From Schleiferilactobacillus perolens DSM 12744 (GTDB lineage Bacteria > Bacillota > Bacilli > Lactobacillales > Lactobacillaceae): a DNA stretch of 64,000 bases. Location of the stretch: the NCBI RefSeq assembly GCF_001435585.1, contig NZ_AZEC01000007.1, forward strand, positions 4,122 to 68,121, in the 5' to 3' direction. The notes under the pieces are model-generated. The model was not told the origin of the DNA, made no database searches, and worked only from the letters and a program-made list of their open reading frames with translations. The position numbers and the translations under genes were made by a program. Below are positions 1,470 to 49,936 of this stretch, in pieces (position 1 is the stretch's first letter; each line of letters opens with the position of its first letter).

Positions 1470-1857
1470 CGTTGGGAAGTGCCTAAGAAAGCGCACCGTT
1501 CAGGAGATTGGGTAACCGCTCCACCCGTTGGTTTGCGGTCAACGCCACGATATACCCATTTTTGAGATGCATGGTGTAAGTGACAGTTGGCTTTAGGACG
1601 AGAGGACGGCCGCGATAATCGACGATGGGCAACAAGAAGTTCCTAACTGTTGACATAAGGACCGCATCCTTTCTGAAAAAAGCAAACATACCACGCCATT
1701 GCCTTATCCACTTACATTTTATTAGTCTCATGTGATGAAAGCAAGAATAAAGTTTGCAAAGAATGTTTGTGGAAAATGACAATCTTCGCCCAATTCGTGA
1801 ATAGTGTATAATAACAGTGAAAAAGTTGGGGTCAACTGAAAGATAGTTCTGCGATGC

Positions 1858-1950
1858 CGTGCCAAAGCTGCGCAGTCTCCGGTGGCAGGGGGCTGGAACG
1901 TGGTGACGGCGCTTTGAGCCCGCAAAGTGCGCGGTCTCAAAGTCGCCTAA
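1858..1950 (-). repeat. Half copy (one arm, inverted orientation) of the 180-bp palindromic repeat family
   Basis: Reverse complement matches the right arm of the copies at 30122-30300 and 36827-36999 at about 90% (…GTTAGGCG.CTTGA.GACCGCGCACTTTGCGGGCT.CAAGCGCCGTCAC.GCGTTCCAGCC…GCAGCTTTGGCACG). Confidence 0.75.
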
Positions 1951-2086
1951 CAGCATATAATCTTGGCCAAAACCAGGCCAAGATTATTGCTGTTTCCACC
2001 ACTGAGCTCCCTGCCACCTCCGACTGCTCCGCATTGTCACTTGTTCCAGGACAAATCAATTGACTCGGGATTTTAGGAGGACGGAT

Positions 2087-2640: not shown

Positions 2641-3681
2641 TCAAACCAACGTTTTGCGCAGTGCCTGATAATCATCGTGTAATTGTTGCGTGACCGCGTC
2701 GATTGTTTTTGGATCGGCAAAAGCGTGGGTCATGGACGTCAGGTTGCTGGCCTGGAAATCGGCCGCCTCCAACCCAAACAGTTCATGGAATAACATGTAT
2801 TCGCGGGTGAGATTAGTATGGGACACTGTCCGGTTGTCGGTACTAATATTGAACGGCACATGGGCCGCGGCCAGGTCCCGGTAATGGAAGTGGTCAATAT
2901 CGCTGGCTGCCTTAGTCTGCAAGTTCGAAGTCAAACAGATTTCAAACAATGTGTCCGTATCGTGGGCCAGCTGCAGTGCATCAGCATGACCGTGGATGGC
3001 GGTCCCGTGACCGATCCGTTTAGCCCCCAGCTTGATTGCCTCGACCACATTTTCCACACAGCCGCATTCACCGGCGTGCAAAGTGAGCGGAATATGGTGT
3101 GCGGCCGCATAATCAATGGCCGGTTGCAAAGTATGGGGCGGGAAATGGGCCTCATCACCGGCAAAATCCACGCCCACAACGCCTTTATCTTTGAGGACGT
3201 TGCCAGCAGTGAACGCCGTGATCGATCGTTCGATCGGTTGCTGGCGCATACCACAGATCAAAATTCGAGTAGTAATGCCCGTTTCTTCCTGGGCGCGGGC
3301 TAAACCGTGGGCCACCGCAATGATCGTATCCGCTTCTGTCATGCCCTTGTCTGTGGATAAGGTGGGTGCGAAGCGGACTTCTAAATAGCGCACATTTTCT
3401 CGCGCCGCCTGACTGGCCACGTCAAAAGCGGCCAACGACAATGCCTCTGGAATTTGCAATAAAGGCCCGATGAAATCGAAGCGTTCCAAGTATTCCATTA
3501 AGGAAGAGACATCCGGTGGTGCAATGACCTTCCGCGCTAATTCTTCATCCGTCGCCGGGATCGGAATATGCTGCATCTCTGCAATTTCTCGAATTGTGGG
3601 AATTGAAATCGATCCATCCAAGTGACAATGCAACTCCACCTTGGGTAATTGGTGGGCAATGGCTTCGTTAAAAACGGACAC
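2641..3681 (-). CDS. add: Adenosine deaminase
   Basis: 346 aa. Metal-binding motif HCHLDGS at the N-terminus and the C-terminal SLTHTNLTREY / STDNRTVS motifs of the ADA family. Confidence 0.9.
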   Translation of the reverse strand: MSVFNEAIAHQLPKVELHCHLDGSISIPTIREIAEMQHIPIPATDEELARKVIAPPDVSSLMEYLERFDFIGPLLQIPEALSLAAFDVASQAARENVRYLEVRFAPTLSTDKGMTEADTIIAVAHGLARAQEETGITTRILICGMRQQPIERSITAFTAGNVLKDKGVVGVDFAGDEAHFPPHTLQPAIDYAAAHHIPLTLHAGECGCVENVVEAIKLGAKRIGHGTAIHGHADALQLAHDTDTLFEICLTSNLQTKAASDIDHFHYRDLAAAHVPFNISTDNRTVSHTNLTREYMLFHELFGLEAADFQASNLTSMTHAFADPKTIDAVTQQLHDDYQALRKTLV

Positions 3682-6028: not shown

Positions 6029-7177
6029 GTGAGTTTACGTGATGATTTACAAGCACTTGTACAGGATGTTGGCGTCCATGGCCCATTTGTTTCATTGTTC
6101 ATGCCAGTCCATCCTGAAGATGTCACCATGGAGAAAGACCGGACTCAGTTTAAGAGCTTGGTTTCGCAGGCCCAAGCAGACTTTGCGAAGAAGTATCCAG
6201 ATGCGGAGTGGCGGCCCTTCGGTGAGAAGTTTGCGCTGATCTTGGCGGAACGTCAGCTGATTAGCGGCACCAATACCAGCATGGCCGTCATTGCTGGGGC
6301 GGATCACGTGTATCAATACTTTATGCGCCTCCCGTTGAATCCAGAAGTGAAAATAACTGAAAACCTTTATGTCTTACCGATTATTGAAAATGACCAATAC
6401 AACATCAACTATGATTTACTGGCCCTGGAAAAAGAAAGCTTCAAGTTATTCTCTGTCCACGGTCATGATGTCACAGAAGTCGATCTGCCAAAGAGTGCGC
6501 CCACCAATCGAGCGGATGCCATTGGTACTGAATTAAAGAACGACAATGATATGCAGCGGTCGACGGGTGCCCGGGGCAATTCCGTGTTCCATGGTCACGA
6601 TCCCAAGGAAGAAACGGACCGGGCTGACACGGAACGCTACTTCAAGATGGTGGACGATTGGATTCGAGCCAACATCTCTGTACCGACACATACCCCAGTC
6701 ATCCTCATGGCAGTGGATGAAGTTCAAGGGGAGTACCGTAAGATTTCCAAGAGCGGTGTACTATTGGATCAACCGCGGATTGCCAAGATGCCGCCGAAGC
6801 TGAATAAGAATGATCTGCACGCTGTCGCGGTGGAGTTGGAAGAAGAACTCCGGGTCATTGCGAAGAAACGAGTGCAAAAGGCCAATGACGATGCCCGTTC
6901 TGGTAACCGGGCCAGCTCGGCAGTGCCAGATATTGCCCGTGCAGCCATTGAAGGTCGGGTGGATACATTGATCTTGAAGCGTGGTGCTTCTGCACCAGGC
7001 GCTATCGGCTTTGACCACTTGGTCGATCGGGAAAGCGAAGACGCTCGGGCTAACAACCTGTTGAACGATATTGCAGTCGTGGTATTAGGTTATGGCGGCC
7101 GAGTATTTGTTCAAGGCGACGATGGTTTCAACGATAAAGAAGTGGCCCATGCGATTCTGCGGGGCCGGATTGGTTAG
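6029..7177 (+). CDS. Hypothetical protein, possibly eRF1/Pelota-like (baeRF / host-attachment family)
   Basis: 382-aa soluble protein. GTG start after AGGGGGCGG. The C-terminal VDTLILKRG segment recalls eRF1 domain 3. Family assignment is from memory only. Confidence 0.6.
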   Translation: MSLRDDLQALVQDVGVHGPFVSLFMPVHPEDVTMEKDRTQFKSLVSQAQADFAKKYPDAEWRPFGEKFALILAERQLISGTNTSMAVIAGADHVYQYFMRLPLNPEVKITENLYVLPIIENDQYNINYDLLALEKESFKLFSVHGHDVTEVDLPKSAPTNRADAIGTELKNDNDMQRSTGARGNSVFHGHDPKEETDRADTERYFKMVDDWIRANISVPTHTPVILMAVDEVQGEYRKISKSGVLLDQPRIAKMPPKLNKNDLHAVAVELEEELRVIAKKRVQKANDDARSGNRASSAVPDIARAAIEGRVDTLILKRGASAPGAIGFDHLVDRESEDARANNLLNDIAVVVLGYGGRVFVQGDDGFNDKEVAHAILRGRIG

Positions 7178-7364: not shown

Positions 7365-7393
7365 TTGCAGTTCGAGATTCAGCGGCTTACTAT
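7365..7393 (+). promoter_or_regulatory. Sigma-A-type promoter of the first SH3b-repeat paralog
   Basis: TTGCAG, 17-nt spacer, TACTAT. Duplicated with the same spacing at 8442-8470. Confidence 0.5.
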
Positions 7394-7448
7394 GATTGTG
7401 ACAGAAAGATTACAAAAATGTTTCAGCTGTCATAAGGGGGATTTAGCA

Positions 7449-8219
7449 ATGAAGAAATCATTGATCGTTTTATTCAGTGCTGCGCTGCTCGGCTTAGGGG
7501 CGGCCACATTTTCTGCGCAACCCGCCGTAGCGGCCACTCACAATGTCACACGGACGAATCCGACAGACAACGACATCAGTCACAGCGATTTTGGTGTCGT
7601 CACGGTCGGTCCGCGGGCGGCAATGCTTTACACGGATCATCAGTTGACTAAGGCTGCTAACCGTACTTTACCTGCGGGTTCGCAGTGGCGTTATACCGTT
7701 CGCGGGATACAGAATTACAGCGATGGTTCAACTAAGGTTTGGTCTTACCGGGTCGGCACAAACTTATGGTTACCCGCAAGCGAGAGCAGTGTGCTATCTT
7801 ATCAACCTGGCTTCAGCATCTATCACCACGATATTGTCCAGGTTCTAAAAGGGGGCGCACCGGTTTACTCGGACATCGCATTGCAACATACGACTGGTCG
7901 AAAATTGCCAGCTGGTTCCCAGTGGCAGTTCGGTCGGGCGCTGATTAATGATGGCGGTCAACTCTATGGTTACCAGGTTGGCGGTAACGAATTCGTGGCG
8001 GCATCGAATACGACGCTCGTTCAACGGCGCGGTATTTTCACTGTGGGACATGCCAGTGCTTTTACGATTAATTCCGGTCGTGTTGTCGGACGACAATTGG
8101 CCGGTGGTTCCCGGTGGCAGACCAATCGCATTGTTTATATGCATGGTGGTTTCTATTACCAAGTGGCCACTGATCTGTATATTGGCGCCATTGCTGGGAC
8201 CTGGACGCCAAGCAAGTAA
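7449..8219 (+). CDS. Secreted protein of 3 GW/SH3b-type cell-wall-binding repeats, no catalytic domain
   Basis: Signal peptide MKKSLIVLFSAALLGLGAATFSAQPAVAA. Repeats have the pattern R.LP.GS.W…YYQVATN.W. RBS AAGGGGGA. Confidence 0.8.
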   Translation: MKKSLIVLFSAALLGLGAATFSAQPAVAATHNVTRTNPTDNDISHSDFGVVTVGPRAAMLYTDHQLTKAANRTLPAGSQWRYTVRGIQNYSDGSTKVWSYRVGTNLWLPASESSVLSYQPGFSIYHHDIVQVLKGGAPVYSDIALQHTTGRKLPAGSQWQFGRALINDGGQLYGYQVGGNEFVAASNTTLVQRRGIFTVGHASAFTINSGRVVGRQLAGGSRWQTNRIVYMHGGFYYQVATDLYIGAIAGTWTPSK

Positions 8220-8297
8220 TATATCTGGATAAAAGCGAACTAGACAGGCGCTAAGCGGTTGGATTCAATTCCGCAATAGATTATGAGAAACACAAAG

Positions 8298-8342
8298 AGA
8301 AGCTCTCAGTAGGCAAAACAGTCCACTGAGAGCTTCTTTTTG
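8298..8342 (+). terminator. Terminator between the tandem paralogs
   Basis: AGAAGCTCTCAGT…ACTGAGAGCTTCT followed by TTTT. Confidence 0.75.
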
Positions 8343-8441
8343 CGAATGGATACCGGACAAGACTGCTAGGAAGTCAAAAGTGCGAGGCCAATCAAAATGG
8401 ATACCCAGGTATGATGTTAACAAATTCTTAACTTATAGCGC

Positions 8442-8470
8442 TTGCAGTTGAGCGCCAGGTGGGCTACGAT
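8442..8470 (+). promoter_or_regulatory. Duplicated promoter of the second paralog
   Basis: TTGCAG, 17 nt, TACGAT. The flanking 110 bp are about 80% identical to 7340-7448. Confidence 0.5.
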
Positions 8471-8525
8471 AAATATGACAGTAGTGTTACAAATACATTT
8501 CAGCTGTCACAAAGGGGATTTAGCA

Positions 8526-9296
8526 ATGAAGAAATCATTTGTCGTATTATTCGGTGCCGTATTGCTTAGTTTCGGAGCAGTGGTGGTGGCTGCACAACCA
8601 GTTTCGGCGGCGACCAATGTCACTAGTTCTGTGACTGAGAAGTTTTCCCAGTCTGATGATTTTGGGGTCCTGACTGCACCAGATTATTCGCAGCAGCTCT
8701 ATACGGACGCCAAATTAACGAAACCGGCTAACCGAACGGTACCCGCATCGTCCAGATGGCGGTATACGGCCGTTTTAGGTGTTATTCGCGGTAATGACCC
8801 AGAGCGCACATATTCTTATCGCGTCGCCACGAATCTTTGGCTGCCGGCCGAGGGCGTACGTTTTTTGACCTCCTATCAGCCAGGTACCAGCGTCTGGCAT
8901 CACGATATTGTGCAAGTGAACAATAACGCGGGTGCGCGCGTTTATTCCGATCTAACTTTCAAGAAACCCACTGGTCGAGTGTTGCCTAAGGGATCGCGGT
9001 GGCAATTTGCCCGGGGTGTGACAAATCGGCTGGATGAATTAATTGGCTACCAGGTTGGCACTAATGAGTTTGTACTTGAATCAGATGCCAGCATTGTCCA
9101 GCGGCGGGGTGTTTTCACTGCCCAAAAGGGTGGAGCAGACATTGTGAACGGCCCCGGTACCGTCCAACGTAAAGTAGCGGGTGGTTCTCGTTGGCGTACG
9201 ACATCTGTCACTTTTATGCACAATCGCTTCTATTATCAAATTGCCACATATCTGTGGGTGGACAGTAATTTAGGCACTTGGATGCCCCAAAAATAA
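8526..9296 (+). CDS. Secreted SH3b/GW-repeat protein, paralog of 7449..8219
   Basis: MKKSFVVLFGAVLL signal peptide, three repeats, identical RBS and 5' leader. Confidence 0.8.
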   Translation: MKKSFVVLFGAVLLSFGAVVVAAQPVSAATNVTSSVTEKFSQSDDFGVLTAPDYSQQLYTDAKLTKPANRTVPASSRWRYTAVLGVIRGNDPERTYSYRVATNLWLPAEGVRFLTSYQPGTSVWHHDIVQVNNNAGARVYSDLTFKKPTGRVLPKGSRWQFARGVTNRLDELIGYQVGTNEFVLESDASIVQRRGVFTAQKGGADIVNGPGTVQRKVAGGSRWRTTSVTFMHNRFYYQIATYLWVDSNLGTWMPQK

Positions 9297-9318
9297 TGCA
9301 CCACGAGGAGAATAAACC

Positions 9319-10356
9319 ATGAAGAAATCATTCGTCTTTCTGTGTAGTGTGGCACTGCTTACTGTCGGTGTGACAACAGCAAGTGCTGTGCCGGTGCATG
9401 CGGCCGGCAACGATACGGAAATTACCGATACCACGGATTCATTAGCTGTTTTAAACAAGACTGGCTACATTTACTTCCGTCACGGGGAGGGGGTCCTCAG
9501 CGCATACAAGGATCCAGAACTGAAGATCTTTGGTTCGGAAGTGATTCATTTTGCCCAACGTTACATGACCAACCAAGCCGTCGCCGCCTACGATCAAATT
9601 GCCACGAATACCAAAACAAATCAGGTGGTGGCTTACCACATTCCTGATGGCTGGGTGGGGCTCGATTCCTGGACTGCTGAAGACCTCAACCAATATGCCG
9701 CAGAAAATGATTTTGGCGTGCTCACAATGGGCAAACAGGCACAGCAATTATATACCGATTCCAAATTATTGACGCCTGCCAACCGGACATTAGCCCCCGG
9801 TACCGCATGGCGGTATGGTGCGAAAGAGACCATTACGTACAAATATTCCGGCAAGGCGGCTGATTATGCCTATCAAGTGGGTACTAATCTCTGGCTGCCG
9901 GCGAGTGTTGTGGTGTCCAAACAGAGCTATCGTTATGGTTACAGCTACTGGACTCACGACATCTTGCAAGTGAGTAATCCGGCCGGGGCCAAGGTTTATG
10001 CCCAAGGTGACTGGTATAATCCAACCTCTAAAACACTACCGTACAATTCAAGATGGCAGTTTGGCCAGGTAGTCATGAGTATTGACGGTGATGTGCTGGG
10101 CTTCCAAGTTGGTGGAAATCAATTTGTGAAAGCAGCGGACGTTACGGTCTCCGATAGACCGGGCATCTTTACGATCACCAGGGCGAACGGTGCAGCAACG
10201 ATGCGCAGGGACACCGTACCGACCGGCAAAAAGTTGGCCAAGGGTTCTCGCTGGCGCACGACTGGCAGACTTTATCTTCCTGGTGGTTTCTACTATCGGG
10301 TGGCCACGAACGTGTATGTGTCACCCGGTGATGGTAAATGGGTAGCCGCTAAGTAA
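9319..10356 (+). CDS. Secreted protein with an N-terminal unknown domain plus 3 SH3b/GW repeats
   Basis: Signal peptide MKKSFVFLCSVALLTVGVTTASAVPVHAA. Repeat motifs NRTLAPGTAWRY…YQVGTNLWL and further copies. Confidence 0.8.
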   Translation: MKKSFVFLCSVALLTVGVTTASAVPVHAAGNDTEITDTTDSLAVLNKTGYIYFRHGEGVLSAYKDPELKIFGSEVIHFAQRYMTNQAVAAYDQIATNTKTNQVVAYHIPDGWVGLDSWTAEDLNQYAAENDFGVLTMGKQAQQLYTDSKLLTPANRTLAPGTAWRYGAKETITYKYSGKAADYAYQVGTNLWLPASVVVSKQSYRYGYSYWTHDILQVSNPAGAKVYAQGDWYNPTSKTLPYNSRWQFGQVVMSIDGDVLGFQVGGNQFVKAADVTVSDRPGIFTITRANGAATMRRDTVPTGKKLAKGSRWRTTGRLYLPGGFYYRVATNVYVSPGDGKWVAAK

Positions 10357-28116: not shown

Positions 28117-30054
28117 ATGATGCACCGTTTATTCGCTGCAGATACGGGAGTAACTGGTCCTAGCGGCGTCGCATATAAAGATGATTTGTACGAAGCAGTC
28201 AATGGTCAATGGGAAAAGAAGGCTGTTATTCCGGCAGACCGAGCTGGGATTGGCGGTTTCAACGATTTGAGCATTGCTGTTGAGAAACAATTGATTGCCG
28301 ATCTGAACAATATGGGCGAATTGGAGTCTGCGTCCGACAAACCTCAGCTGCAACAAGCCGTGCGGTTGTTTCAATTGGCATTAGACTTTGATCGGCGCAA
28401 CAACGAAGGTTTCAAGCCGGCACTGTCTGATTACCAACGAGTCTCTGCGCTCACTGATTTTGGTGAGATCAATGATGCGGCCGGTGCATTATACGAACAC
28501 TTCCCGTTACCTTTTGTATTAAGCGTCGAACCGGACATGAAGGACACGGCACACAATGCGGTGTACGCATACGGCCCCAGCTTAATTTTGCCGGATACGA
28601 CTTATTATGCCGATGGCAATCCTAACCGTGATGCGTTGCTGAAGACATGGCGAGAAATGGCGATCCAACTGTTAATGGCAGCCGGTGAAAAGCGGGCCGA
28701 TGCTGTTTTGACAGCCGATCAGGCCTTGGCTTTCGATAAGAGTTTGGTCCCGTATGTCAAATCTGGGGAAGAATGGTCCGATTATCCGGCCATGTACAAC
28801 CCAGAATCCGATGCCGATTTCACCGCCCATTCCCAGTCCCTGGATTTGAGCAAGTTCTTGGCTGATTTGTTACCGGAGAAGCCGGATACCGTCATTGTAA
28901 CCGAACCTCGGTACTTCGAAAATCTGAACAAAATCGTTAATCCCAATACCTTTACGGCAATGCACAGCTGGATGACGATCAACTACCTAATCAGTGTGGC
29001 CAGTTACTTGAGTGATGATCTTCGCCAGTTGGGGGACACATTCCATCGGGCCATCAGCGGCAGTCAGGAGTCACCCAATCAGGCCAAGAGCGCTTATTAT
29101 CTGACCAACCATTACTTTGCTGAAGTGATCGGTCAGTATTATGGTCAGAAATACTTTGGTGATGAAGCCCGTCAAGACGTGCAGACCATGATTCAAAAGA
29201 TGATTGCAGTTTACGAAGAGCGTCTGAATACGAATACGTGGCTGAGTCCCGCCACGCGGCAAAGTGCCGTCAAGAAGTTGGAAAAGATCGTGGTCAAGGT
29301 CGGCTATCCCGACAAATTGCGGCCTGTTTACAGCAAGCTGAAAGTCGATCGGCAAGCTTCGTTGTTTGCGAATGCGCGGGCGTTCAACATTATCTTTGCC
29401 CGGGACATGTTTAGCAAACAAGTCAAACCAGTAGATCGGACAGAGTGGGGGATGCCGGGCAGCCTAGTCAATGCGCAATACGACCCATCTCGGAACGACA
29501 TCACTTTTCCAGCGGCCATTTTACAAGCACCGTTCTACAGCTTGAAGCAAAGCACTTCCCAAAACTTCGGCGGTATCGGGGCGGTGATTGCCCACGAAAT
29601 TTCCCACGCCTTCGATAACAACGGCGCTAAATTCGACGAGTACGGCAATTTGAAGAACTGGTGGACCAAAGAAGACTTTGCCCAGTTCAATAAACGCACA
29701 GACGCCATGGTGGCCGAATTCGACGGTTTACCATATGCTGGCGGTAAAGTGAATGGTAAGTTGATTTTAGGCGAGAACGTCGCCGACCTCGGCGGCATGA
29801 GTGCTGCTCTGGCCGCCGCCAAGAAAGAATCCGACTACGACGCCCAAGCCTTCTTCATCAACTGGGCCCGTGTCTGGCGCGGCAAATACACCCAAGCCAA
29901 CATGACCGCTCGCCTCGCCACAGATCCCCACGCGCCGAATGTCCTACGTGCCAACATGCAACCGCGCAATTTCCAAGAATTCTACGACGCGTTCCATGTT
30001 GAACCAGGCGACGGCATGTACATGGATTCTGAAAAACGCGTGCATATTTGGTAG
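28117..30054 (+). CDS. pepO: M13-family neutral endopeptidase
   Basis: HEISHAF zinc motif plus ENVADLGG. 645 aa. Confidence 0.9.
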   Translation: MMHRLFAADTGVTGPSGVAYKDDLYEAVNGQWEKKAVIPADRAGIGGFNDLSIAVEKQLIADLNNMGELESASDKPQLQQAVRLFQLALDFDRRNNEGFKPALSDYQRVSALTDFGEINDAAGALYEHFPLPFVLSVEPDMKDTAHNAVYAYGPSLILPDTTYYADGNPNRDALLKTWREMAIQLLMAAGEKRADAVLTADQALAFDKSLVPYVKSGEEWSDYPAMYNPESDADFTAHSQSLDLSKFLADLLPEKPDTVIVTEPRYFENLNKIVNPNTFTAMHSWMTINYLISVASYLSDDLRQLGDTFHRAISGSQESPNQAKSAYYLTNHYFAEVIGQYYGQKYFGDEARQDVQTMIQKMIAVYEERLNTNTWLSPATRQSAVKKLEKIVVKVGYPDKLRPVYSKLKVDRQASLFANARAFNIIFARDMFSKQVKPVDRTEWGMPGSLVNAQYDPSRNDITFPAAILQAPFYSLKQSTSQNFGGIGAVIAHEISHAFDNNGAKFDEYGNLKNWWTKEDFAQFNKRTDAMVAEFDGLPYAGGKVNGKLILGENVADLGGMSAALAAAKKESDYDAQAFFINWARVWRGKYTQANMTARLATDPHAPNVLRANMQPRNFQEFYDAFHVEPGDGMYMDSEKRVHIW

Positions 30055-30121
30055 CATCTTATCCTCAATAATCTCGAATTGTAGTAGTAATGCTGGAACA
30101 CCGGTTTTGAATTACGACTAA

Positions 30122-30300
30122 ACCAGTGCCAATGCGGAGCAATCGGAGGTGTCAGGTGGCTCAGCTGTGGAAACCACACAGCGCGCGGTTTTTGCGCGCT
30201 GATGTGGTTAGGCGTCTTGAAGACCGCGCACTTTGCGGGCTTCAAGCGCCGTCACAGCGTTCCAGCCACCTGACACCGGAGATTGCGCAGCTTTGGCACG
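30122..30300 (+). repeat. Full copy of the 180-bp imperfect-palindrome intergenic repeat
   Basis: About 85% identical to 36827-36999. Arms GTGTCAGGTGG / CCACCTGACAC around a central GCGCGCGGTTTTTGCGCGC hairpin. Confidence 0.85.
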
Positions 30301-30466
30301 ACGGTCGGAGTCCAACGTGTGTTCCAGCCTTTTTGTACCTGAGTACTTTATCGGTATGACAATTTCGTCACATGACTAGCGTTCTCATGGTAGAACGGTA
30401 CAATAATCACTAGGGACAACACTTCTCCGCCCTTAGACCGATTTTGCTTTTTCCAAGCGATTTATC

Positions 30467-32667: not shown

Positions 32668-33897
32668 TTAAAGTACACGCACCGCGAAGCTGGGCATGAA
32701 TCCTTGACTCATTGTCTGAATCTTAACGACATCGCCCGGCTCGGGTGCCGCAATGTATTGATTGTTACCGATATACAATGCATCGTGGTATGTAGCACCC
32801 TGTGGTCCCCAAAAAAGAATATCACCGGGTTGGAGCGCATTCAAAGATACTTGAGTACCAGAAGACTCTTGCGGTACAGTCCAACCACCAATATTAATAC
32901 CAGTGGCGTTGAGGTAAACATAGTACATGAGACCAGAACAATCGAACACATCGGGTCCCTTACCGCCCCATACATAGGGCTTACCCAATTGTTGCTGGGC
33001 TAAATTAATCACTGCGCTGACTTTCGCACTATTGGGCAAACTAGCACTGCCGCTGCCACTGTTGCCACCAGTTGAACTACCACCACTGGTGCCGACACTG
33101 GCAATGGCACTGGCCACCCATTCAGAAGGAGATACCCGATACCAGGTATAGCCTTCTGCTTGGCACGTTTCATAGTATTGGTAGGTCTCGCCAGCATTAA
33201 GTGTGCGCGAAATACCATAGCTGGTACCTGCGCCTTGCCGTAAGTTACCGGTGCTGCTGATTGTCACAACCCCTTGACTCGTGTTCAGGCTGTTGTCAGG
33301 CACACTGTTATTATTGCTGTTGTTAGAATTATTATTCGTGGCACCACCGGTATATACACTTGCACCAGCACTGGCTACCCATTCAGAAGGAGACACACGA
33401 TACCATGTATAACCGTCCGCTTGCCGAGTTTCGTAATACTTATAAGTATCACCAGCCGCCAGTCCACGGGAGACACCGTAATTCAAACCAGCACCAAGCC
33501 GCAAATTAGAAGCGTAATTAATCTGGACGACGCCCTGGCTGCTTGTACTGCTTGATTGACTACTATTATTATCAGTGCTGGCGGAACTTGTCCCTGTGCG
33601 ATCCACAACACCGGCACTGGCCACCCAGTCCGTGGTAGAAACTCGATACCAAGTGTAGCCGCCTGCTTGACGGGTCTCAAAATATTTATAAGTTTCCCCA
33701 GGTTGCAAATAACGACTGACGCCGTATTGTGTTCCCGGTCCTTGACGCAGGCAAGAAGTATATTGCACTTCCACCCAATTATTGGTGGCCGCGTGGACTT
33801 CTTGTGTGGAATGCTGCATAACAATTGCGCCACCGGCAAGCAACGCAGCAGTGGACATCATCGTAGTAAGCCCTTGACGCATATGATGTTTTTTCAA
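32668..33897 (-). CDS. NlpC/P60 peptidoglycan endopeptidase with 3 N-terminal SH3b repeats
   Basis: C-terminal GKPYVWGG…FDCSGL…H catalytic motifs. Signal peptide. Confidence 0.85.
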   Translation of the reverse strand: MKKHHMRQGLTTMMSTAALLAGGAIVMQHSTQEVHAATNNWVEVQYTSCLRQGPGTQYGVSRYLQPGETYKYFETRQAGGYTWYRVSTTDWVASAGVVDRTGTSSASTDNNSSQSSSTSSQGVVQINYASNLRLGAGLNYGVSRGLAAGDTYKYYETRQADGYTWYRVSPSEWVASAGASVYTGGATNNNSNNSNNNSVPDNSLNTSQGVVTISSTGNLRQGAGTSYGISRTLNAGETYQYYETCQAEGYTWYRVSPSEWVASAIASVGTSGGSSTGGNSGSGSASLPNSAKVSAVINLAQQQLGKPYVWGGKGPDVFDCSGLMYYVYLNATGINIGGWTVPQESSGTQVSLNALQPGDILFWGPQGATYHDALYIGNNQYIAAPEPGDVVKIQTMSQGFMPSFAVRVL

Positions 33898-36763: not shown

Positions 36764-36826
36764 GAGTCTTTATCCTTCCATTTTGAAAAAATAAAGGACT
36801 GGCACAAAAGCCTGAATACCAATGCA

Positions 36827-36999
36827 ACCAGTGCCAATGCGGAGCAATCGGAGGCTGAATGGGCTCAGCTGTGGAAACCGCACCGCGCGCTTTTTGCGCG
36901 GATGCGGTTAGGCGTGTTTGAGACCGCGGTCTTTGCGGGCTCAAACCGCCGTCACAGCGTTCCAGCCCATTCAGCCGGAGATTGCGGAGCTTTGGCACG
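36827..36999 (+). repeat. Second full copy of the 180-bp palindromic repeat
   Basis: Same orientation as 30122-30300 and about 85% identical. Confidence 0.85.
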
Positions 37000-37062
37000 G
37001 CCATCGGCGATGGCTTTTATTCCAATCCTTTTGAGTTGTTAAAAATCAATTCGCAAATATTT

Positions 37063-46489: not shown

Positions 46490-47308
46490 ATGAAGATCAC
46501 TAAAGTTTTGGCGTCTTTTCTGTTGTTGGGCGGTGTTGGTTTAGCGGCGGCTGTGACCACCAGCAGTGTCGCACCTGCGCAGGCAGCCACAGTTTCCGCA
46601 CCGGCCGTCATTCGGTTGAATCAGACCGCTTGGATTATGGACCGCTCGGGGAACCATGTTGCCAATGAGGGGTATGGTACTTTGCCTGCGGGCACGAGTT
46701 GGCGGGTCACGGATGTCTTTGTGGATTCTGAGTATGGTCAGCTGTACATGCGTGTCTCTAAGGATGGATGGATTGCGTACGATGTTGACGATACTGCCAA
46801 CAGTGTGTTGTTGGCGCAATTGCGGGAGACTGCGCGGACGGTTGCTCAAAAGCAGGGCAATGCTGGTTTGTTTATCACGACAAAATCTGCGGACTCAATT
46901 AGCCAGACACTACTAGCCACACCTGTTGTTGACCGACCAGGGAGCAATACTGTTGTCCGTCAATTGCCGGCTGGCAGCCGTTGGCGGGTCACGAGTTATG
47001 CGAGTGCTCCGGCGATAGTGAAGGGAGACAACTCGGATCAGTATTTTCAAATTGCCACGAATCAATGGATAAAGAGCCAATATGTTCAAGTCCCAGCCGT
47101 CAATTATTTACAAGTCAAAGGTCAACCAGTCCAGGTTTATCAGTTCTCAGCGAATAAACTGCAAATGGTGCCGACACGACAACTCAAACCGCATACCGCT
47201 TGGCGCGCCAATGCTTTGTACAACAAAGCAATCAATGGGCCGTTTTATTTCCAAGTAGGCAGAAACGAGTGGATCACGAACCAGGGAGTTATCGTGAATA
47301 ATCATTAA
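46490..47308 (+). CDS. Secreted SH3b/GW-repeat-only protein (array member 1)
   Basis: MKITKVLASFLLLGG signal peptide. RBS AGGGAG. Three repeats. Confidence 0.8.
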   Translation: MKITKVLASFLLLGGVGLAAAVTTSSVAPAQAATVSAPAVIRLNQTAWIMDRSGNHVANEGYGTLPAGTSWRVTDVFVDSEYGQLYMRVSKDGWIAYDVDDTANSVLLAQLRETARTVAQKQGNAGLFITTKSADSISQTLLATPVVDRPGSNTVVRQLPAGSRWRVTSYASAPAIVKGDNSDQYFQIATNQWIKSQYVQVPAVNYLQVKGQPVQVYQFSANKLQMVPTRQLKPHTAWRANALYNKAINGPFYFQVGRNEWITNQGVIVNNH

Positions 47309-47331
47309 TCGCTCAGCGAGGAGGTTGAGTT

Positions 47332-48156
47332 ATGAAAGTCAGTAAAGTTTTGGCCTCACTGTTTTTATTGGGCGGTATCGTTCTAGCGGGTGGTGTAATG
47401 AATTCAGCATCCGCCCCAGTCCACGCAGCCACGACCGAACCAGCTATTATTCAATTAAACGATTCAACCCATATGCAGACCTATCAGGATGATGGCACAC
47501 AGAATCCCGGTTTGACGGATAAATTTACCGCAGGATCCCGTTGGCGGGTCACCGGGACAAAAGTCGGCAAAATGGGCGACGATTTATACATCCGGGTGGC
47601 CACCAACACTTGGCTGTATTACAACACCTTTGACGATGCAAATGCCACGCTGATCGCTCAGTTGCGGGCCGATGTCCAAGCCTATTCCCAAAAACAGGGC
47701 AACTTGGGCGGCTATGTCATTCCCACCCAAGTACTCAATGACATCGGCAAAACGCTGGCAAGCACACCCGTGGTAGAACGGCCGGGCAGTACGAAAGTGT
47801 TACGGCAATTACCGGCCGGGACTCGCTGGCGCTTGACCGCCCGAGCGTATAAGCCGTTGGTTACCAAAACCGATGACAGCGACGTCTATTTCCAAATTGC
47901 GACGGGTCAGTGGATCAACATCAAATATTTGGGGATTGAAATACGGTGGGGGTCACCGTTCATCGTGAACAATACGCCGGTCCAAGCCTACCGCTTTAAC
48001 GCCGCCACGCTGCAAATGGACGCCACGACACGTCAGCTCAAGCCATATACGGCATGGCGCATTAATGGATCGCACTACCTGACAGTGCGCGGTCAAGCTT
48101 ACTTGCTGGTTGGACAAAACGAATGGGTGAAGCCGCAGCAAGGTTCTAACAAGTGA
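47332..48156 (+). CDS. Secreted SH3b/GW-repeat-only protein (array member 2)
   Basis: MKVSKVLASLFLLGG signal peptide. RBS GAGGAGG. Confidence 0.8.
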   Translation: MKVSKVLASLFLLGGIVLAGGVMNSASAPVHAATTEPAIIQLNDSTHMQTYQDDGTQNPGLTDKFTAGSRWRVTGTKVGKMGDDLYIRVATNTWLYYNTFDDANATLIAQLRADVQAYSQKQGNLGGYVIPTQVLNDIGKTLASTPVVERPGSTKVLRQLPAGTRWRLTARAYKPLVTKTDDSDVYFQIATGQWINIKYLGIEIRWGSPFIVNNTPVQAYRFNAATLQMDATTRQLKPYTAWRINGSHYLTVRGQAYLLVGQNEWVKPQQGSNK

Positions 48157-48172
48157 AAGTGGGGAAATAATC

Positions 48173-49030
48173 ATGAAAATCAGCAAAGTTTTGGCATCGA
48201 TGCTGCTTTTATTGGGTGTGAGTGCAGCTAGTCAAGTAATCGCACAAAACAGTGTGCCAGTACAGGCTGCGACGGTTTCTGAACCGGCCGTGATTAATTT
48301 GCATGGTGATCGCGCAATCCTTTATGCTTGGCACAATGATGGGATGAAATATGCGCCCATGCTTCGTTCCTTGTGGGGTGGCAGCTGGCGGGTGACCGCT
48401 GTGCGGATTGATGCTCAGACGGGGGATATTTATTTCCGTGTGGCAACGGATGTTTGGATGAAATATTATTACTACAATACGCGTCCGACCCTCAACAAGA
48501 CGTTGGTGCAGCAAATGCAAAATACCGCCCAACAATATTCTAAGAGTCAGGGCAATATCGGTGGCTTTGTAAACAATGGGGATATTGATTACAAAATTGC
48601 GATCGTTAAGACATTAGCGAAGACACCGATCGTCGCTCAGCCCGGAAGTACCAAGGTGATCCGGACTTTACCAGAGGGAACACGCTGGCGGATTACGCAA
48701 CAGTCTTATCGATTGCTGCTCAGCGCAACCGATAATTCGCCAATCTATTATCAAGTCGCCAACCACCAATGGGTGGATGCCAAATATGTCGCGCAAGAGA
48801 TCAAAGCGTATCGGATTCCTGTACTTTCATTAGAGCAGGGGTTACAGGCCTATCGGTTTGACAACGCCAAACTCAAGATGATTCCGACGCGGTGGTTGGC
48901 ACCGCGCCAGAATTGGGGAATTGATTACCGGTATAGCCCGAGAATCAATTACACGTTTAAAGGGAGCTATTACTTCCAAATTGGGGCAAATGAATGGGTG
49001 ACTGGTGAAGGGGGTCAAGTAGGTAACTAG
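48173..49030 (+). CDS. Secreted SH3b/GW-repeat-only protein (array member 3)
   Basis: MKISKVLASMLLLLG signal peptide. Confidence 0.8.
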   Translation: MKISKVLASMLLLLGVSAASQVIAQNSVPVQAATVSEPAVINLHGDRAILYAWHNDGMKYAPMLRSLWGGSWRVTAVRIDAQTGDIYFRVATDVWMKYYYYNTRPTLNKTLVQQMQNTAQQYSKSQGNIGGFVNNGDIDYKIAIVKTLAKTPIVAQPGSTKVIRTLPEGTRWRITQQSYRLLLSATDNSPIYYQVANHQWVDAKYVAQEIKAYRIPVLSLEQGLQAYRFDNAKLKMIPTRWLAPRQNWGIDYRYSPRINYTFKGSYYFQIGANEWVTGEGGQVGN

Positions 49031-49084
49031 TAAAGGAAAAGTTGGTATTTGTCATTTTTTCAATCATGATTGGGGGAAAAGATC

Positions 49085-49936
49085 ATGAAACTCAAAAAGA
49101 TTTTGGCATCACTAATTCTATTGGGCGGTATCAGCATGGCGAGTGCAATCATTGGATTTACACGGGTACCAGTCCGTGCCGCAACAACTGAATCACCAAT
49201 TATCCGGTTAAACGGTCCTACCAATACGCAAACGTATCGCGATGATGGTACGGAAAATCCCGGTTTTACAAGTAAGTTTACGACAAACAGTGCTTGGCGT
49301 GTGACGGGTGCCCGGATGGGTCCGCTCGCAGACAGTTTGTATGTGCGAGTCGCCACCAATGAGTGGATTTACTATTCGATGCTTGACCATGCGAATGCAC
49401 CACTGATCAAGCAGTTGCGTGCAACCACTCAGGCATATTCAGTAAAACAGGGAAATTACGGTGGGTATGTCATTCCGGGAATCCCGCTTAATTATGTTGG
49501 CAGGACCGTTACTACGACACCAGTCGTCAATCGGCCGGGCAGCACCAAAATCGTGCGGCAATTACCCGCAGGGACGCAGTGGCGTTTGACTGCTGAGGCG
49601 CTCAAACCGTTGATTCTTAAAACAGATATGACGGATGAGTATTTCCAGATTGCAACCAATCAATGGGTTAACATGAAATACATGGCCGTATTTATCGATT
49701 TTAAGTCACCACTGGTTATCGGCAATCAGCCCGAGCGCGTGTACCGGTTTGATGACCATACGCTAAAAATGACAGCCACCGCTCGGCAACTCAAGCCACA
49801 TACGACTTGGCAAAACAATTGGGTGTACATGAACATGGCGAACGGTGAAACTTTCTCATTGAATCACGGACAAACCTATTTGCAGGTTGGCGGTAATGAG
49901 TGGGTTTATAGTCCGAATGCAAAGATTGCATACTGA
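49085..49936 (+). CDS. Secreted SH3b/GW-repeat-only protein (array member 4)
   Basis: MKLKKILASLILLGG signal peptide. RBS GGGGGA. Confidence 0.8.
   Translation: MKLKKILASLILLGGISMASAIIGFTRVPVRAATTESPIIRLNGPTNTQTYRDDGTENPGFTSKFTTNSAWRVTGARMGPLADSLYVRVATNEWIYYSMLDHANAPLIKQLRATTQAYSVKQGNYGGYVIPGIPLNYVGRTVTTTPVVNRPGSTKIVRQLPAGTQWRLTAEALKPLILKTDMTDEYFQIATNQWVNMKYMAVFIDFKSPLVIGNQPERVYRFDDHTLKMTATARQLKPHTTWQNNWVYMNMANGETFSLNHGQTYLQVGGNEWVYSPNAKIAY

Follow-up and report, generated by a model that had tools for sequence, protein, structure and literature searches.

The 64,000 nucleotides of Schleiferilactobacillus perolens DSM 12744 analyzed here (hereafter the window) contain a long imperfect palindrome that recurs between genes. 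A preliminary description had left its nature among three possibilities, a MITE/REPIN-like mobile repeat, a structured small RNA, or a terminator module, and we asked which of these best accounts for it.

Copies in the window and beyond

The repeat of about 180 bp reported at 30122-30300 and 36827-36999 in the same orientation was recovered at both places, and the cores of these two copies (c1 and c2) are 85.0% identical. An nhmmer search of the window returned c1 and c2 with E-values of 1e-44 to 1e-50 and a third copy, c3, with 2e-43 to 5e-44; no further match below E = 0.2 was found in the rest of the window. What had been taken for a single-arm copy at 1858-1950 is actually a full-length inverted copy (1857-2042, minus strand, model positions 2-174, E = 2e-43), whose sequence divergence is confined to the apical hairpin. 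All three copies are intergenic, as proposed. The conserved core of c1 is about 172-178 nt long; the palindrome reaches past the earlier bounds through less conserved complementary arms. The arm sequences named at that stage (GTGTCAGGTGG/CCACCTGACAC) do form a real stem, yet their sequence is wholly different among copies, with complementarity always kept. The features of the three copies are listed below, the bounds of the full units being approximate.

30124-30301, plus strand: conserved core of c1 (nhmmer E = 1e-44, model positions 2-174)
30092-30334, plus strand: full unit of c1 with outer arms (sequence and extended fold)
30092-30101 and 30319-30328, plus strand: outer arms of c1, GCTGGAACAC pairing with GTGTTCCAGC (sequence)
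30330-30334, plus strand: T-run of c1 (sequence)
28117-30054: M13 peptidase gene; the full unit of c1 begins 38 nt past its stop
36829-37000, plus strand: core of c2 (nhmmer E = 1e-49)
36792-37032, plus strand: full unit of c2, arms TAAAGGACTGGCACAAAAGCC ... GGCTTTTATTCCAATCCTTT (extended fold)
1857-2042, minus strand: full-length core of c3 (nhmmer E = 2e-43 to 5e-44, model positions 2-174)
1820-2064, minus strand: full unit of c3, with a short outer stem
2056-2064 and 1831-1839: outer stem of c3, TCAATTGAC pairing with GTCAACTGA with one G.T

Elsewhere, copies were sought with pattern scans and nhmmer. The genome of S. harbinensis DSM 16991 holds 16 full copies and one that is internally deleted; S. 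shenzhenensis yielded 4, L. zeae 3, and L. chiayiensis 2, and two L. paracasei plasmids carry the repeat. Metagenome contigs supplied at least about 20 further copies, about 20 of 120 loci being true among the matches listed and the others mostly due to chance. A scan of viral contigs and a BLAST search of phage records returned no copy, and a phage or viral origin was rejected on that basis. In all, 47 distinct copies were collected, with units of 172-374 nt whose length differences are not multiples of three. The repeat is a dispersed, non-coding, small (less than about 500 bp) multi-copy element, and its range is Schleiferilactobacillus and part of the Lacticaseibacillus casei group.

No sequence in the window, and none of the copies in six loci, matched Rfam at the gathering threshold. 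The best sub-threshold match scored 18 bits (E = 0.74), and nothing credible fell on c1 at E-values up to 10. Known RNA families (6S, SRP, ribozymes, OLE, ROOL, raiA, HEARO, and others) were rejected, the Rfam threshold never being reached. S. harbinensis has its genuine 6S RNA at another place (locus L017, positions 2357-2551). The repeat is thus neither confined to its three sites in the window, since many further copies exist in relatives and on plasmids, nor a fit to a known RNA family.

Fold, covariation, and strand-specific motifs

The core of c1 folds at -116.4 kcal/mol (z = -11.4), a stability equaled by none of 200 shuffles, which bears out the long imperfect hairpin proposed from the sequence. 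From the outside inward it comprises a closing stem (P1), two symmetric CGNAG/CGNAG internal loops, a hypervariable helix (P2), and, beyond P3, a three-way junction with P4 and P5.

30134-30140 (GCGGAGC) and 30144-30148 (CGGAG), plus strand: motifs of the 5' arm (sequence)
30277-30281 (CGGAG) and 30285-30291 (GCGCAGC), plus strand: motifs of the 3' arm, partners of the 5' motifs
30149-30163, plus strand: 5' strand of P2, the hypervariable helix, pairing with 30264-30277
30164-30258, plus strand: three-way junction (fold and alignment)
30164-30170 with 30252-30258, plus strand: P3
30172-30209, plus strand: P4 hairpin, with variable apex and TTTTT loop
30207-30214, plus strand: near-invariant GTTAGGCG
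30211-30250, plus strand: P5 hairpin

In c1, the facing motifs of the 5' and 3' arms give two symmetric GNA/GNA internal loops. The TTTTT that had been described as a tail behind the central GC-rich hairpin is instead the loop of P4, and therefore does not constitute a terminator motif at that place.

The fold is strongly backed by covariation, and every helix is kept by compensatory change. P2 has a different sequence in each subfamily and is fully compensated, with 4-5 pair types at each of pairs 29-34/165-172 of the A4 alignment; P3 shows a compensatory swap from CTGTG/CACAG to TGGTG/CACCA in c3. Over 68 pairs, pairing is possible in 92.6% of cells, versus 35-48% with slid partners, and double changes occur in 32 of the 68; none of 500 shuffles reached any of these measures. 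RNAalifold, run independently, reported 22 compensated pairs. Across the two genera, the bases of the junction and the loops hardly vary, and a G-U pair stays fixed at 49/148 in 24 of the 28 sequences. Compared pairwise, the cores average 84% identity and the adjacent 42-nt arms 51%, with a background of 46-47%; despite this low identity between copies, the arms pair within most of them.

Two short motifs distinguish the strands of the core. CGNAG is found four times on the top strand and not at all on the bottom strand in 30 of the 47 distinct copies, bottom-strand matches numbering 0-2 in every one of the 47. In 44 of 47 copies, the longer GCGNAGC is present once or twice on the top strand and absent from the bottom one, against a chance expectation of about 0.04. 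Its variable N is T in 14 of 70 motifs. Mini-hairpins of d(GCGNAGC) melt at 70-76 °C for all four N, a related RNA octamer, r(GCGAAAGC), melts at 39 °C, and the DNA motif is known from single-stranded priming and promoter sites, namely the phage G4 origin, RSF1010 ssiA, and the early promoters of phage N4 (PMC13037366). Judged by motif match, the repeat appears to resemble these sites in having exact heptamers with all four N, one or two per copy and on one strand only. It differs from them in that its two heptamers face each other within one long stem and are equally able to form a symmetric internal loop, and in that no primase, origin, or plasmid-replication context was seen at the repeat.

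We lean toward single-stranded DNA rather than RNA as the selected form, because GCGNAGC is a classic extra-stable DNA mini-hairpin, because G-U pairs are as rare as A-C mismatches, and because orientation relative to transcription is random. Besides two fixed G-U pairs, 37 G-U and 35 A-C cells were counted, G-U making up about 2% of cells. Against this reading, G-U outnumbers A-C by 28 to 13 once the misaligned S. shenzhenensis rows are left out, and the one-strand motif and the fixed junction G-U pair would also fit RNA.

It is possible, if doubtful, that the cores are functional structured RNAs released from or acting within neighboring transcripts, for example as a 3'-UTR protein-binding module or a processed stable RNA; the arms would then be a processing or stabilizing stem, and the CGNAG/CGNAG loops would make tandem sheared G-A contacts, to protein or tertiary. 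The strong covariation in every helix, the near-invariant junction and loop bases, and core conservation far above that of the flanks, with boundaries at the base of P1, agree with such a role, as do the restriction of the motifs to one strand, the fixed 49/148 pair, the greater stability of the top strand as RNA (36 of 48 copies when both strands were folded), and the T-runs that follow many units on the same strand. The unusual rarity of G-U pairs, equal to that of A-C, and the lack of an Rfam match argue against it, and the genomic placement of the copies adds further objections.

Gene ends, terminators, and turnover between strains

Copies sit almost only at gene ends, in either orientation: 21 occupy convergent spacers, 13 are co-oriented and 13 anti-oriented in tandem spacers, and 2 lie in divergent spacers. 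The even split in tandem spacers means that half of those copies would be transcribed as the other strand only, which a structured RNA does not readily accommodate; c2 itself is antisense to the transcription of its neighbors, two minus-strand genes. No sigma-70-like promoter was found beside c1 or c2. Near c3, a sigma-70-like site (1835-1808, minus strand) is found on the downstream side of the copy. An independent promoter was rejected, c1 and c2 having no candidate and the only one, near c3, pointing away from it. With flanks unrelated between copies, and hence no shared promoter, the independent small-RNA gene suggested earlier is not favored. The Lacticaseibacillus units also contain a bidirectional terminator-like hairpin, which shares the strand of the core and immediately precedes it, and copies are lost from strains without replacement; both facts count against a structured RNA as well.

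The position of the copies invites a simpler reading, in which they are enlarged intrinsic (bidirectional) terminators, duplicated or converged, with termination, insulation, or 3'-end protection as their sole role and the core as a passenger. Convergent spacers are enriched and divergent ones nearly empty, and an A-tract/stem/T-tract layout is present in many units. T-runs, on the strand of the element, follow all three units of the window and about half of those of S. harbinensis. Alleles free of c2 have a terminator-like hairpin of 13 bp (one bulge) at that spot, and where the element would lie, element-free alleles form A-tract/hairpin/T-tract structures with folding energies of -19.7 and -38.6 kcal/mol; these hairpins were folded directly, a simple terminator scan not having called them. 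That scan did not call the stem-loops of c1 and c2 either (at least 240 nt), and it found no other terminator-like site between the genes flanking c1 and no second one in element-bearing alleles. The location bias and the ordinary hairpins of element-free alleles give partial support to the terminator module proposed at the outset.

As in intrinsic terminators, the units follow genes, frequently with A- and T-tracts, and an ordinary terminator occupies their place in element-free alleles; unlike them, the stem-loop measures 170-370 nt instead of 20-40 nt, and its conserved inner architecture is unrelated to termination. A 172-nt junction core with near-invariant unpaired bases and one-strand CGNAG motifs is not needed for termination, and a T-run is present behind only about half of the units in Schleiferilactobacillus. 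Moreover, c3 comes after a gene that has its own perfect 17-bp terminator (1426-1465) and directly before the start of the next, a 164-aa gene (2087), and convergence is unable to account for cores 93-98% identical at unrelated loci. Termination as the whole explanation is therefore improbable.

Both orientations of the repeat are present in the window, across which GC skew is positive nearly everywhere (2 of 15 8-kb windows are marginally negative, and the cumulative curve has no sustained reversal), and a replication-strand bias was rejected. Their occurrence in one replichore is therefore a poor fit to a strictly replication-strand-dependent mechanism for single-stranded DNA.

Copies proved polymorphic, presence and absence being seen among strains 98.7-99% identical. 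Copy c2 is absent from two loci of related assemblies (L033 and L034) where the flanks are 98.7% identical, c1 is present in one other assembly (L042) and absent from nine, and c3 is present in four others; in one assembly (L172), 161 nt have been deleted from its interior between CAGG repeats. Several contigs have their breakpoint within a copy. At the c1 and c2 loci the alleles differ over the entire spacer and present neither a clean insertion nor an exact empty site; old polymorphism with recombination therefore explains these differences as well as recent transposition does.

Because c1 and c2 are directly oriented and 6.7 kb apart, the intervening segment, from the SPFH operon to the GNAT gene, might be pictured as the cargo of a composite mobile unit with the two copies as its ends. 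The alleles contradict this: one assembly has c1 and the whole segment and no c2 (L042 and L033 are the same contig), nine others have the SPFH genes with neither copy, and the segment is ordinary chromosomal gene content with flanks 98.6% identical. The bracketing noted earlier is thus almost certainly not that of a mobile unit.

The units themselves differ between genera. Among 18 Lacticaseibacillus-type copies examined, 9 have recognizable 19-nt ends, AGAGGCTGAGCCATAATTC...GAATTATGGCTCAGCCTCT, and the 8 copies with both ends measure 365-374 nt between them; those without recognizable ends include both plasmid copies. These ends are homologous to the arm consensus of Schleiferilactobacillus, GGACTGGGACAAAAG, a weak consensus that is all the arms of the window and of S. 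harbinensis share (51% identity versus a background of 46%), each pairing within its own copy. In L. chiayiensis the whole unit is common to two loci. Among core pairs that are 93-98% identical, the alignment of flanks ends just outside AGTGCC...GGCACGGC, unit boundaries coincide with the base of P1, and variants of P2, P3, and P5 are found in all combinations among copies. The flanks beyond the arms tend to prolong the palindrome as an A-run and a T-run, and no consistent direct repeat that could be a target-site duplication was found outside the inverted repeats or arms.

A source of mobility was sought around the copies. No RAYT/IS200-like gene was seen near them in blocks of up to 8 kb, no transposase stood next to them in the fetched loci, and an all-against-all BLASTP of 255 neighboring ORFs yielded spurious in-repeat ORFs and common transporter families instead of a recurrent neighbor gene. 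A parent insertion sequence with the same ends was not found in the window, the fetched loci, or 72,556 plasmids: searches of all loci with the arm and inverted-repeat consensus matched element copies only, and plasmid BLAST with the whole Lacticaseibacillus unit or its 44-nt left end returned the two known plasmids or chance 21-nt matches. One such chance match falls on a Staphylococcus plasmid, away from any insertion-sequence end. P2 as a guide, in the style of a bridge RNA or of intron EBS/IBS pairing, was rejected, since P2 segments match a copy's own flanks no better (4.96 nt) than those of other copies (5.10 nt).

Relation to known repeats and interpretation

With moderate confidence, we interpret the repeat as an unannotated family of dispersed palindromic REP/MITE-like "foldback" repeats, and not as a known RNA gene; by analogy, it seems to resemble elements of the REP/BIME, ERIC, RUP, BOX, and Correia types. 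The ERIC/YPAL, RUP, BOX, Correia, and Bacillus cereus bcr1 elements are short, dispersed palindromes (repeats or MITEs) that adopt long hairpin folds. Like them, the present units are non-coding, within 100-400 bp, and intergenic, with tens of copies in a genome; they lie in either orientation at gene ends, where they are probably often co-transcribed, they vary in presence between strains, and they form imperfect palindromes whose single strands fold very stably. Part of the Lacticaseibacillus units add terminal inverted repeats. Unlike them, they have an apex that is a three-way junction with near-invariant unpaired bases rather than a simple hairpin, and a core far better conserved than the largely locus-specific arms; there is no sequence relationship, and neither a target duplication (e.g. 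TA) nor a parent insertion sequence was found here.

REPs are 20-40 nt and REPINs about 100 nt long, occur in hundreds of copies mainly in proteobacteria, and are mobilized by RAYT (TnpA-REP); the REP signature tetranucleotide is GTAG, and REPs are recognized as folded single strands. The family shares with REP, BIME, and REPIN sequences palindromic units at gene 3' ends, concerted evolution, and a strand-specific motif by or in the hairpin, and the N of CGNAG is often T, which gives GTAG as in the REP signature. It departs from them in being longer and in fewer copies (at least 172 nt and about 16 per S. harbinensis genome, against 20-40 nt with a GTAG-type motif and hundreds of copies), and no RAYT was seen in the blocks of up to 8 kb around copies. 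The size, non-coding character, and multiple copies are those of a MITE, whereas no consistent target-site duplication was seen. The MITE/REPIN-like character first proposed is supported as regards dispersal, polymorphism, and the terminal inverted repeats of part of the Lacticaseibacillus units; it is not supported as regards a RAYT/IS200-like gene or a target-site duplication, neither of which was seen around the copies.

Two other types of folded DNA site were considered and rejected. For an integron attC site, the near-invariant GTTAGGC agrees with the R' consensus GTTRRRY; the partner sequence, however, is GGAAAC instead of RYYYAAC, and the copies are dispersed in both orientations and not in arrays. 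Single-strand origins of the ssoA type have the CS-6 hexamer TAGCG(T/A) in their terminal loop; for ssoA of rolling-circle plasmids, this hexamer is absent from both strands of all 47 copies, most of which are chromosomal.

In the foldback-repeat interpretation, the conserved unit would be the core of about 172 nt, folding as a single strand. It would stand on locus-specific complementary arms in Schleiferilactobacillus, including the window, and inside a 365-374-nt unit with 19-nt terminal inverted repeats in Lacticaseibacillus. We infer that the core sequence moves between loci as DNA, through a trans-acting enzyme, gene conversion, or both. The unit may persist in terminator regions either because a giant hairpin with A and T tracts is harmless there or because it replaces the terminator, and what is selected would be the top strand, folded as a single strand.

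The conservation of the core in place, together with co-evolving arms, points to a function at each locus that a purely selfish element would not need. A tentative and rather unlikely extension is accordingly that the core is a new functional single-stranded nucleic-acid module in Firmicutes, either a single-stranded DNA site or a structured RNA. As DNA, it could be a folded recognition site for an HUH nuclease, primase, or recombinase, in a large REP-like system with GCGNAGC mini-hairpins and a junction. As RNA, it could represent a new structured type with two tandem-G-A loops that selection and gene conversion maintain at about 16 loci in each genome. Such a module, if real, would explain the conserved core beside near-random arms, the covarying helices, and the one-strand motifs.

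Our literature search returned nothing relevant on MITEs or repeats of Lactobacillus or Lacticaseibacillus, and no such dispersed structured repeat family appears to have been annotated or described for the Lactobacillaceae, as judged from Rfam, plasmid annotations, and the literature. The family breaks short-read assemblies, several contigs ending inside its copies, and it flags spacers that turn over fast between otherwise 99% identical strains. Lying where neighboring and often convergent transcription ends, it may define the limits of operons in food and probiotic lactobacilli. With a covarying junction core, one-strand GNA motifs, and locus-specific arms, it is more elaborate than the classical REP and MITE hairpins, and it makes tractable the question of whether selection acts on such repeats as single-stranded DNA, as RNA, or only as selfish DNA.

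Copies, distribution, and genomic position of the repeat

The preliminary description reported three window copies of a palindromic repeat, a number confirmed by direct reading and alignment, by a repeat finder that recovered the three sites independently, and by a profile representing 28 members of the family. This profile matched the core of each copy (termed c1, c2, and c3) over its full length, with E values of 1e-44 to 1e-50:

30124-30301, + strand, core of c1
36829-37000, + strand, core of c2
1857-2042, - strand, core of c3

With filters off, no fourth match below E = 0.2 was found in the window. The c1 and c2 cores, in the same orientation, are 85.0% identical, in agreement with the earlier estimate of about 85%; the values are 79% for c1/c3 and 76% for c2/c3. 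Because its profile match is full-length, c3 is a complete copy whose apical hairpin merely differs in sequence, rather than the single arm (1858-1950) first described. The TTTTT thought to trail the central hairpin in fact makes up its loop. The long hairpin itself was borne out, with a predicted fold of -116.4 kcal/mol for c1 (z = -11.4) vs -112.5 kcal/mol, nearly as stable, for its reverse strand.

A search for further copies, as initially suggested, found more in other genomes, two plasmids, and metagenomes. A pattern scan covering a single genome for each species located the family in four species only, apart from a few chance hits and one apparent contaminant: S. harbinensis DSM 16991 (16 complete copies and another with an internal deletion), S. 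shenzhenensis (4 plus one spanning a scaffold gap), L. zeae (3), and L. chiayiensis (2). Two L. paracasei plasmids bear one copy each in unannotated DNA; that of pMGB0734-2 (L002 6000-6194) contains an internal 23-nt tandem duplication (GTTAGGCGACTTCGAGACCGGTT in two copies) where P4 and P5 of the fold meet. Metagenomes provided at least about 20 more copies, chiefly of the Lacticaseibacillus type, and phage records and viral contigs none. A 245-bp Arthrobacter sp. contig (L007, NZ_JABFOE010000088.1, coverage 1.0) consists entirely of a Lacticaseibacillus-type copy, most likely a contamination of that assembly.

All three window copies are intergenic, as initially stated. Based on simple longest-ORF gene calls, the spacers occupied by the family are convergent (21), tandem and co-oriented (13), tandem and anti-oriented (13), or divergent (2), indicating that it occupies gene ends, avoids promoter regions, and has no preferred orientation to transcription. 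No promoter-like site was found beside c1 or c2. GC skew is positive nearly throughout the window, with no sustained reversal of the cumulative curve, and c3 lies on the strand opposite to c1 and c2; thus there is no strict orientation to replication. On one side of c3 is a gene that has a perfect terminator of its own, and on the other the ribosome-binding site of the following gene. At 1426-1465, just after an EamA-family gene ending at 1423, a perfect 17-bp stem flanked by A- and T-tracts resembles a bidirectional terminator.

Five tandem coding repeats with a 249-nt period (62630-63860; 60-73% identical) appear to be part of a large surface-protein-like gene at the window end, and the NlpC/P60 gene holds three 246-261-nt repeats (33106-33701) annotated by Pfam as SH3-like domains. 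Tandem paralogous gene runs occur at 46490-49700 and 7388-10320: four genes about 842-912 nt apart with similar signal-peptide starts, and three at 1077/1060-nt spacing. A (Y/W)YQV(A/G)TNxW-type motif recurs across many window genes.

Fold of the core

On the top strand (+ for c1 and c2, - for c3), the core is closed by the stem P1 (GTGCCAA...TTGGCAC), which is broken by two symmetric internal loops, 5'-CGNAG-3' opposite 5'-CGNAG-3'. P2 follows, with a sequence wholly different from copy to copy, and then P3, leading to a three-way junction with two hairpins: P4, with a variable apex, a conserved AAC/GTT base, and a bulged A, and P5 (GGCG...CGCC). The unpaired and junction bases GCTCAG, G-A, GTTAGGCG, CGCCGTCAC, and CGTTCCAG are near-invariant.

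Covariation was analyzed over 68 pairs in 28 sequences from the four species, the two plasmids, and the window. Standard pairs fill 92.6% of the cells, vs 35-48% when the 3' partners are slid by 1-3 columns; in 32 of the 68 pairs both partners have changed, and none of 500 shuffles attained any of the five measures used. RNAalifold, unaided, recovered 47 pairs, with compensation in 22. S. shenzhenensis differs in P1 sequence yet retains the CGNAG/CGNAG loops. Selection appears clearly to act on the single-strand fold.

We lean towards this folded strand being DNA rather than RNA, in part because G-U pairs are scarce: setting aside two fixed G-U pairs, G-U (37 cells) is as rare as A-C (35), or 28 vs 13 when misaligned S. 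shenzhenensis rows are left out. Compensation is therefore mostly from one Watson-Crick pair to another, which preserves the hairpin on both strands. The random orientation to transcription points the same way, as does the exact match of the motif to the d(GCGNAGC) mini-hairpin, which is stable at 70-76 °C whatever N, against a melting temperature of just 39 °C for the related RNA octamer r(GCGAAAGC), and which is known from ssDNA priming and promoter sites (PMC13037366). Selection of the fold as RNA is nevertheless a live alternative, given that a junction G-U is fixed, the top strand folds slightly better as RNA, and the motif set is essentially one-stranded: in 30 of 47 distinct copies the top strand has four CGNAG motifs and the bottom strand none (0-2 per bottom strand over all copies), and 44 of the 47 have one or two exact GCGNAGC heptamers, all on the top strand.

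Arms, exchange between loci, and strain polymorphism

Extra complementary arms border the core in the window copies and in those of S. harbinensis; many of them start near aaaGGACTGGGACAAAAG and finish near CTTTTGTCCCAGTCCttt, often preceded by an A-run and followed by a T-run. Mean pairwise identity is 84% for cores, 51% for arms, and 46-47% for unrelated flanks, and although barely conserved between copies, the arms pair internally in most of them. About half of the Lacticaseibacillus copies examined are 365-374-nt units with 19-nt terminal inverted repeats (AGAGGCTGAGCCATAATTC...GAATTATGGCTCAGCCTCT) visibly akin to the Schleiferilactobacillus arm consensus. Their 5' arm includes a terminator-like hairpin, with a stem sequence new in almost every copy and pairing always kept. 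Two L. chiayiensis loci have the entire bounded unit in common.

Some S. harbinensis core pairs are 93-98% identical, even in the freely varying P2, and their flanks cease aligning a few bases beyond AGTGCC...GGCACGGC. Variants of P2, P3, and P5 are found in every combination (e.g. P2 = AAAATG with three P3 and three P5 types), which requires recombination between copies. Together, these observations imply that the core spread either by insertion into new palindromic sites or by gene conversion homogenising old copies.

Several contigs, from isolates and from metagenomes, match the flanking genes of the window at 98.6-100% identity. Two assemblies lack c2, with flanking genes 98.7-98.9% identical; their spacer of 81-93 nt contains an A-tract, a 13-bp stem with one bulge, and a T-tract (-19.7 kcal/mol). 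One of these (L042) has c1, which is absent from nine other assemblies with other palindromic sequence instead, including a terminator-like hairpin of -38.6 kcal/mol. In strains without c1, ATTGAGACA is joined straight to CTTGGCAC (L037 3213-3235, allele of window 30055-30390), which looks like a core-deleted remnant having lost all that separates the 5' arm from the last core bases. At the c1 and c2 loci the alleles differ over the whole spacer, beyond the element itself, which prevents reconstruction of a precise empty site or of a target duplication. c3 is present in four assemblies; a fifth, from a metagenome (L172 2940-2965, allele of window 1889-2050), lacks 161 nt of its interior between two CAGG direct repeats, which could reflect a real slipped-strand deletion spanning the hairpin or an artefact of assembly. 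The c3 sequences of L168 and the window show 6 differences over some 235 nt (local baseline 0.77%). Several short-read contigs terminate within element copies. A second short repeat (~AAACGGGCTCCGGCCGACAGCGGCTAGGGC) occurs immediately 3' of the element at two S. harbinensis loci (L024 ~6300-6440, L026 ~6140-6260) and in an element-free c1 spacer (L037 ~3235-3290); intergenic spacers here resemble patchworks made up of several palindromic modules.

Known families and possible role

The family resembles small structured repeats known from the intergenic regions of other bacteria, e.g. ERIC/YPAL, RUP, BOX, Correia, bcr1, and REP/REPIN; we found no literature on a comparable element in lactobacilli. 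No Rfam family matched. The best sub-threshold hit (window 30170-30251, -), the R1162/RSF1010 plasmid antisense RNA, was treated as due to chance, its 18.4 bits (E = 0.74) being far under the gathering score of 55. 6S RNA was ruled out, as S. harbinensis has a separate, genuine one (RF00013, 46.6 bits; L017 2357-2551, -) 1.4 kb from an element copy. The MITE-like reading proposed initially holds for size, copy number, and presence/absence polymorphism, and partly for inverted repeats; it fails for target duplication, and no parent element was found in the window, the element loci, or 72,556 plasmids. By size and copy number the family is not a REP.

The third proposal, a terminator module, stands in part: c1 and c2 alleles with the element have no other terminator-like structure, whereas element-free alleles do, suggesting that the element may replace the terminator at its site. 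However, termination as the sole role would leave the conserved core unexplained. We favour a REP/MITE-like foldback repeat that would reside in terminator regions, and consider it rather unlikely, though far from negligible, that its core represents a truly novel functional module of ssDNA or RNA.
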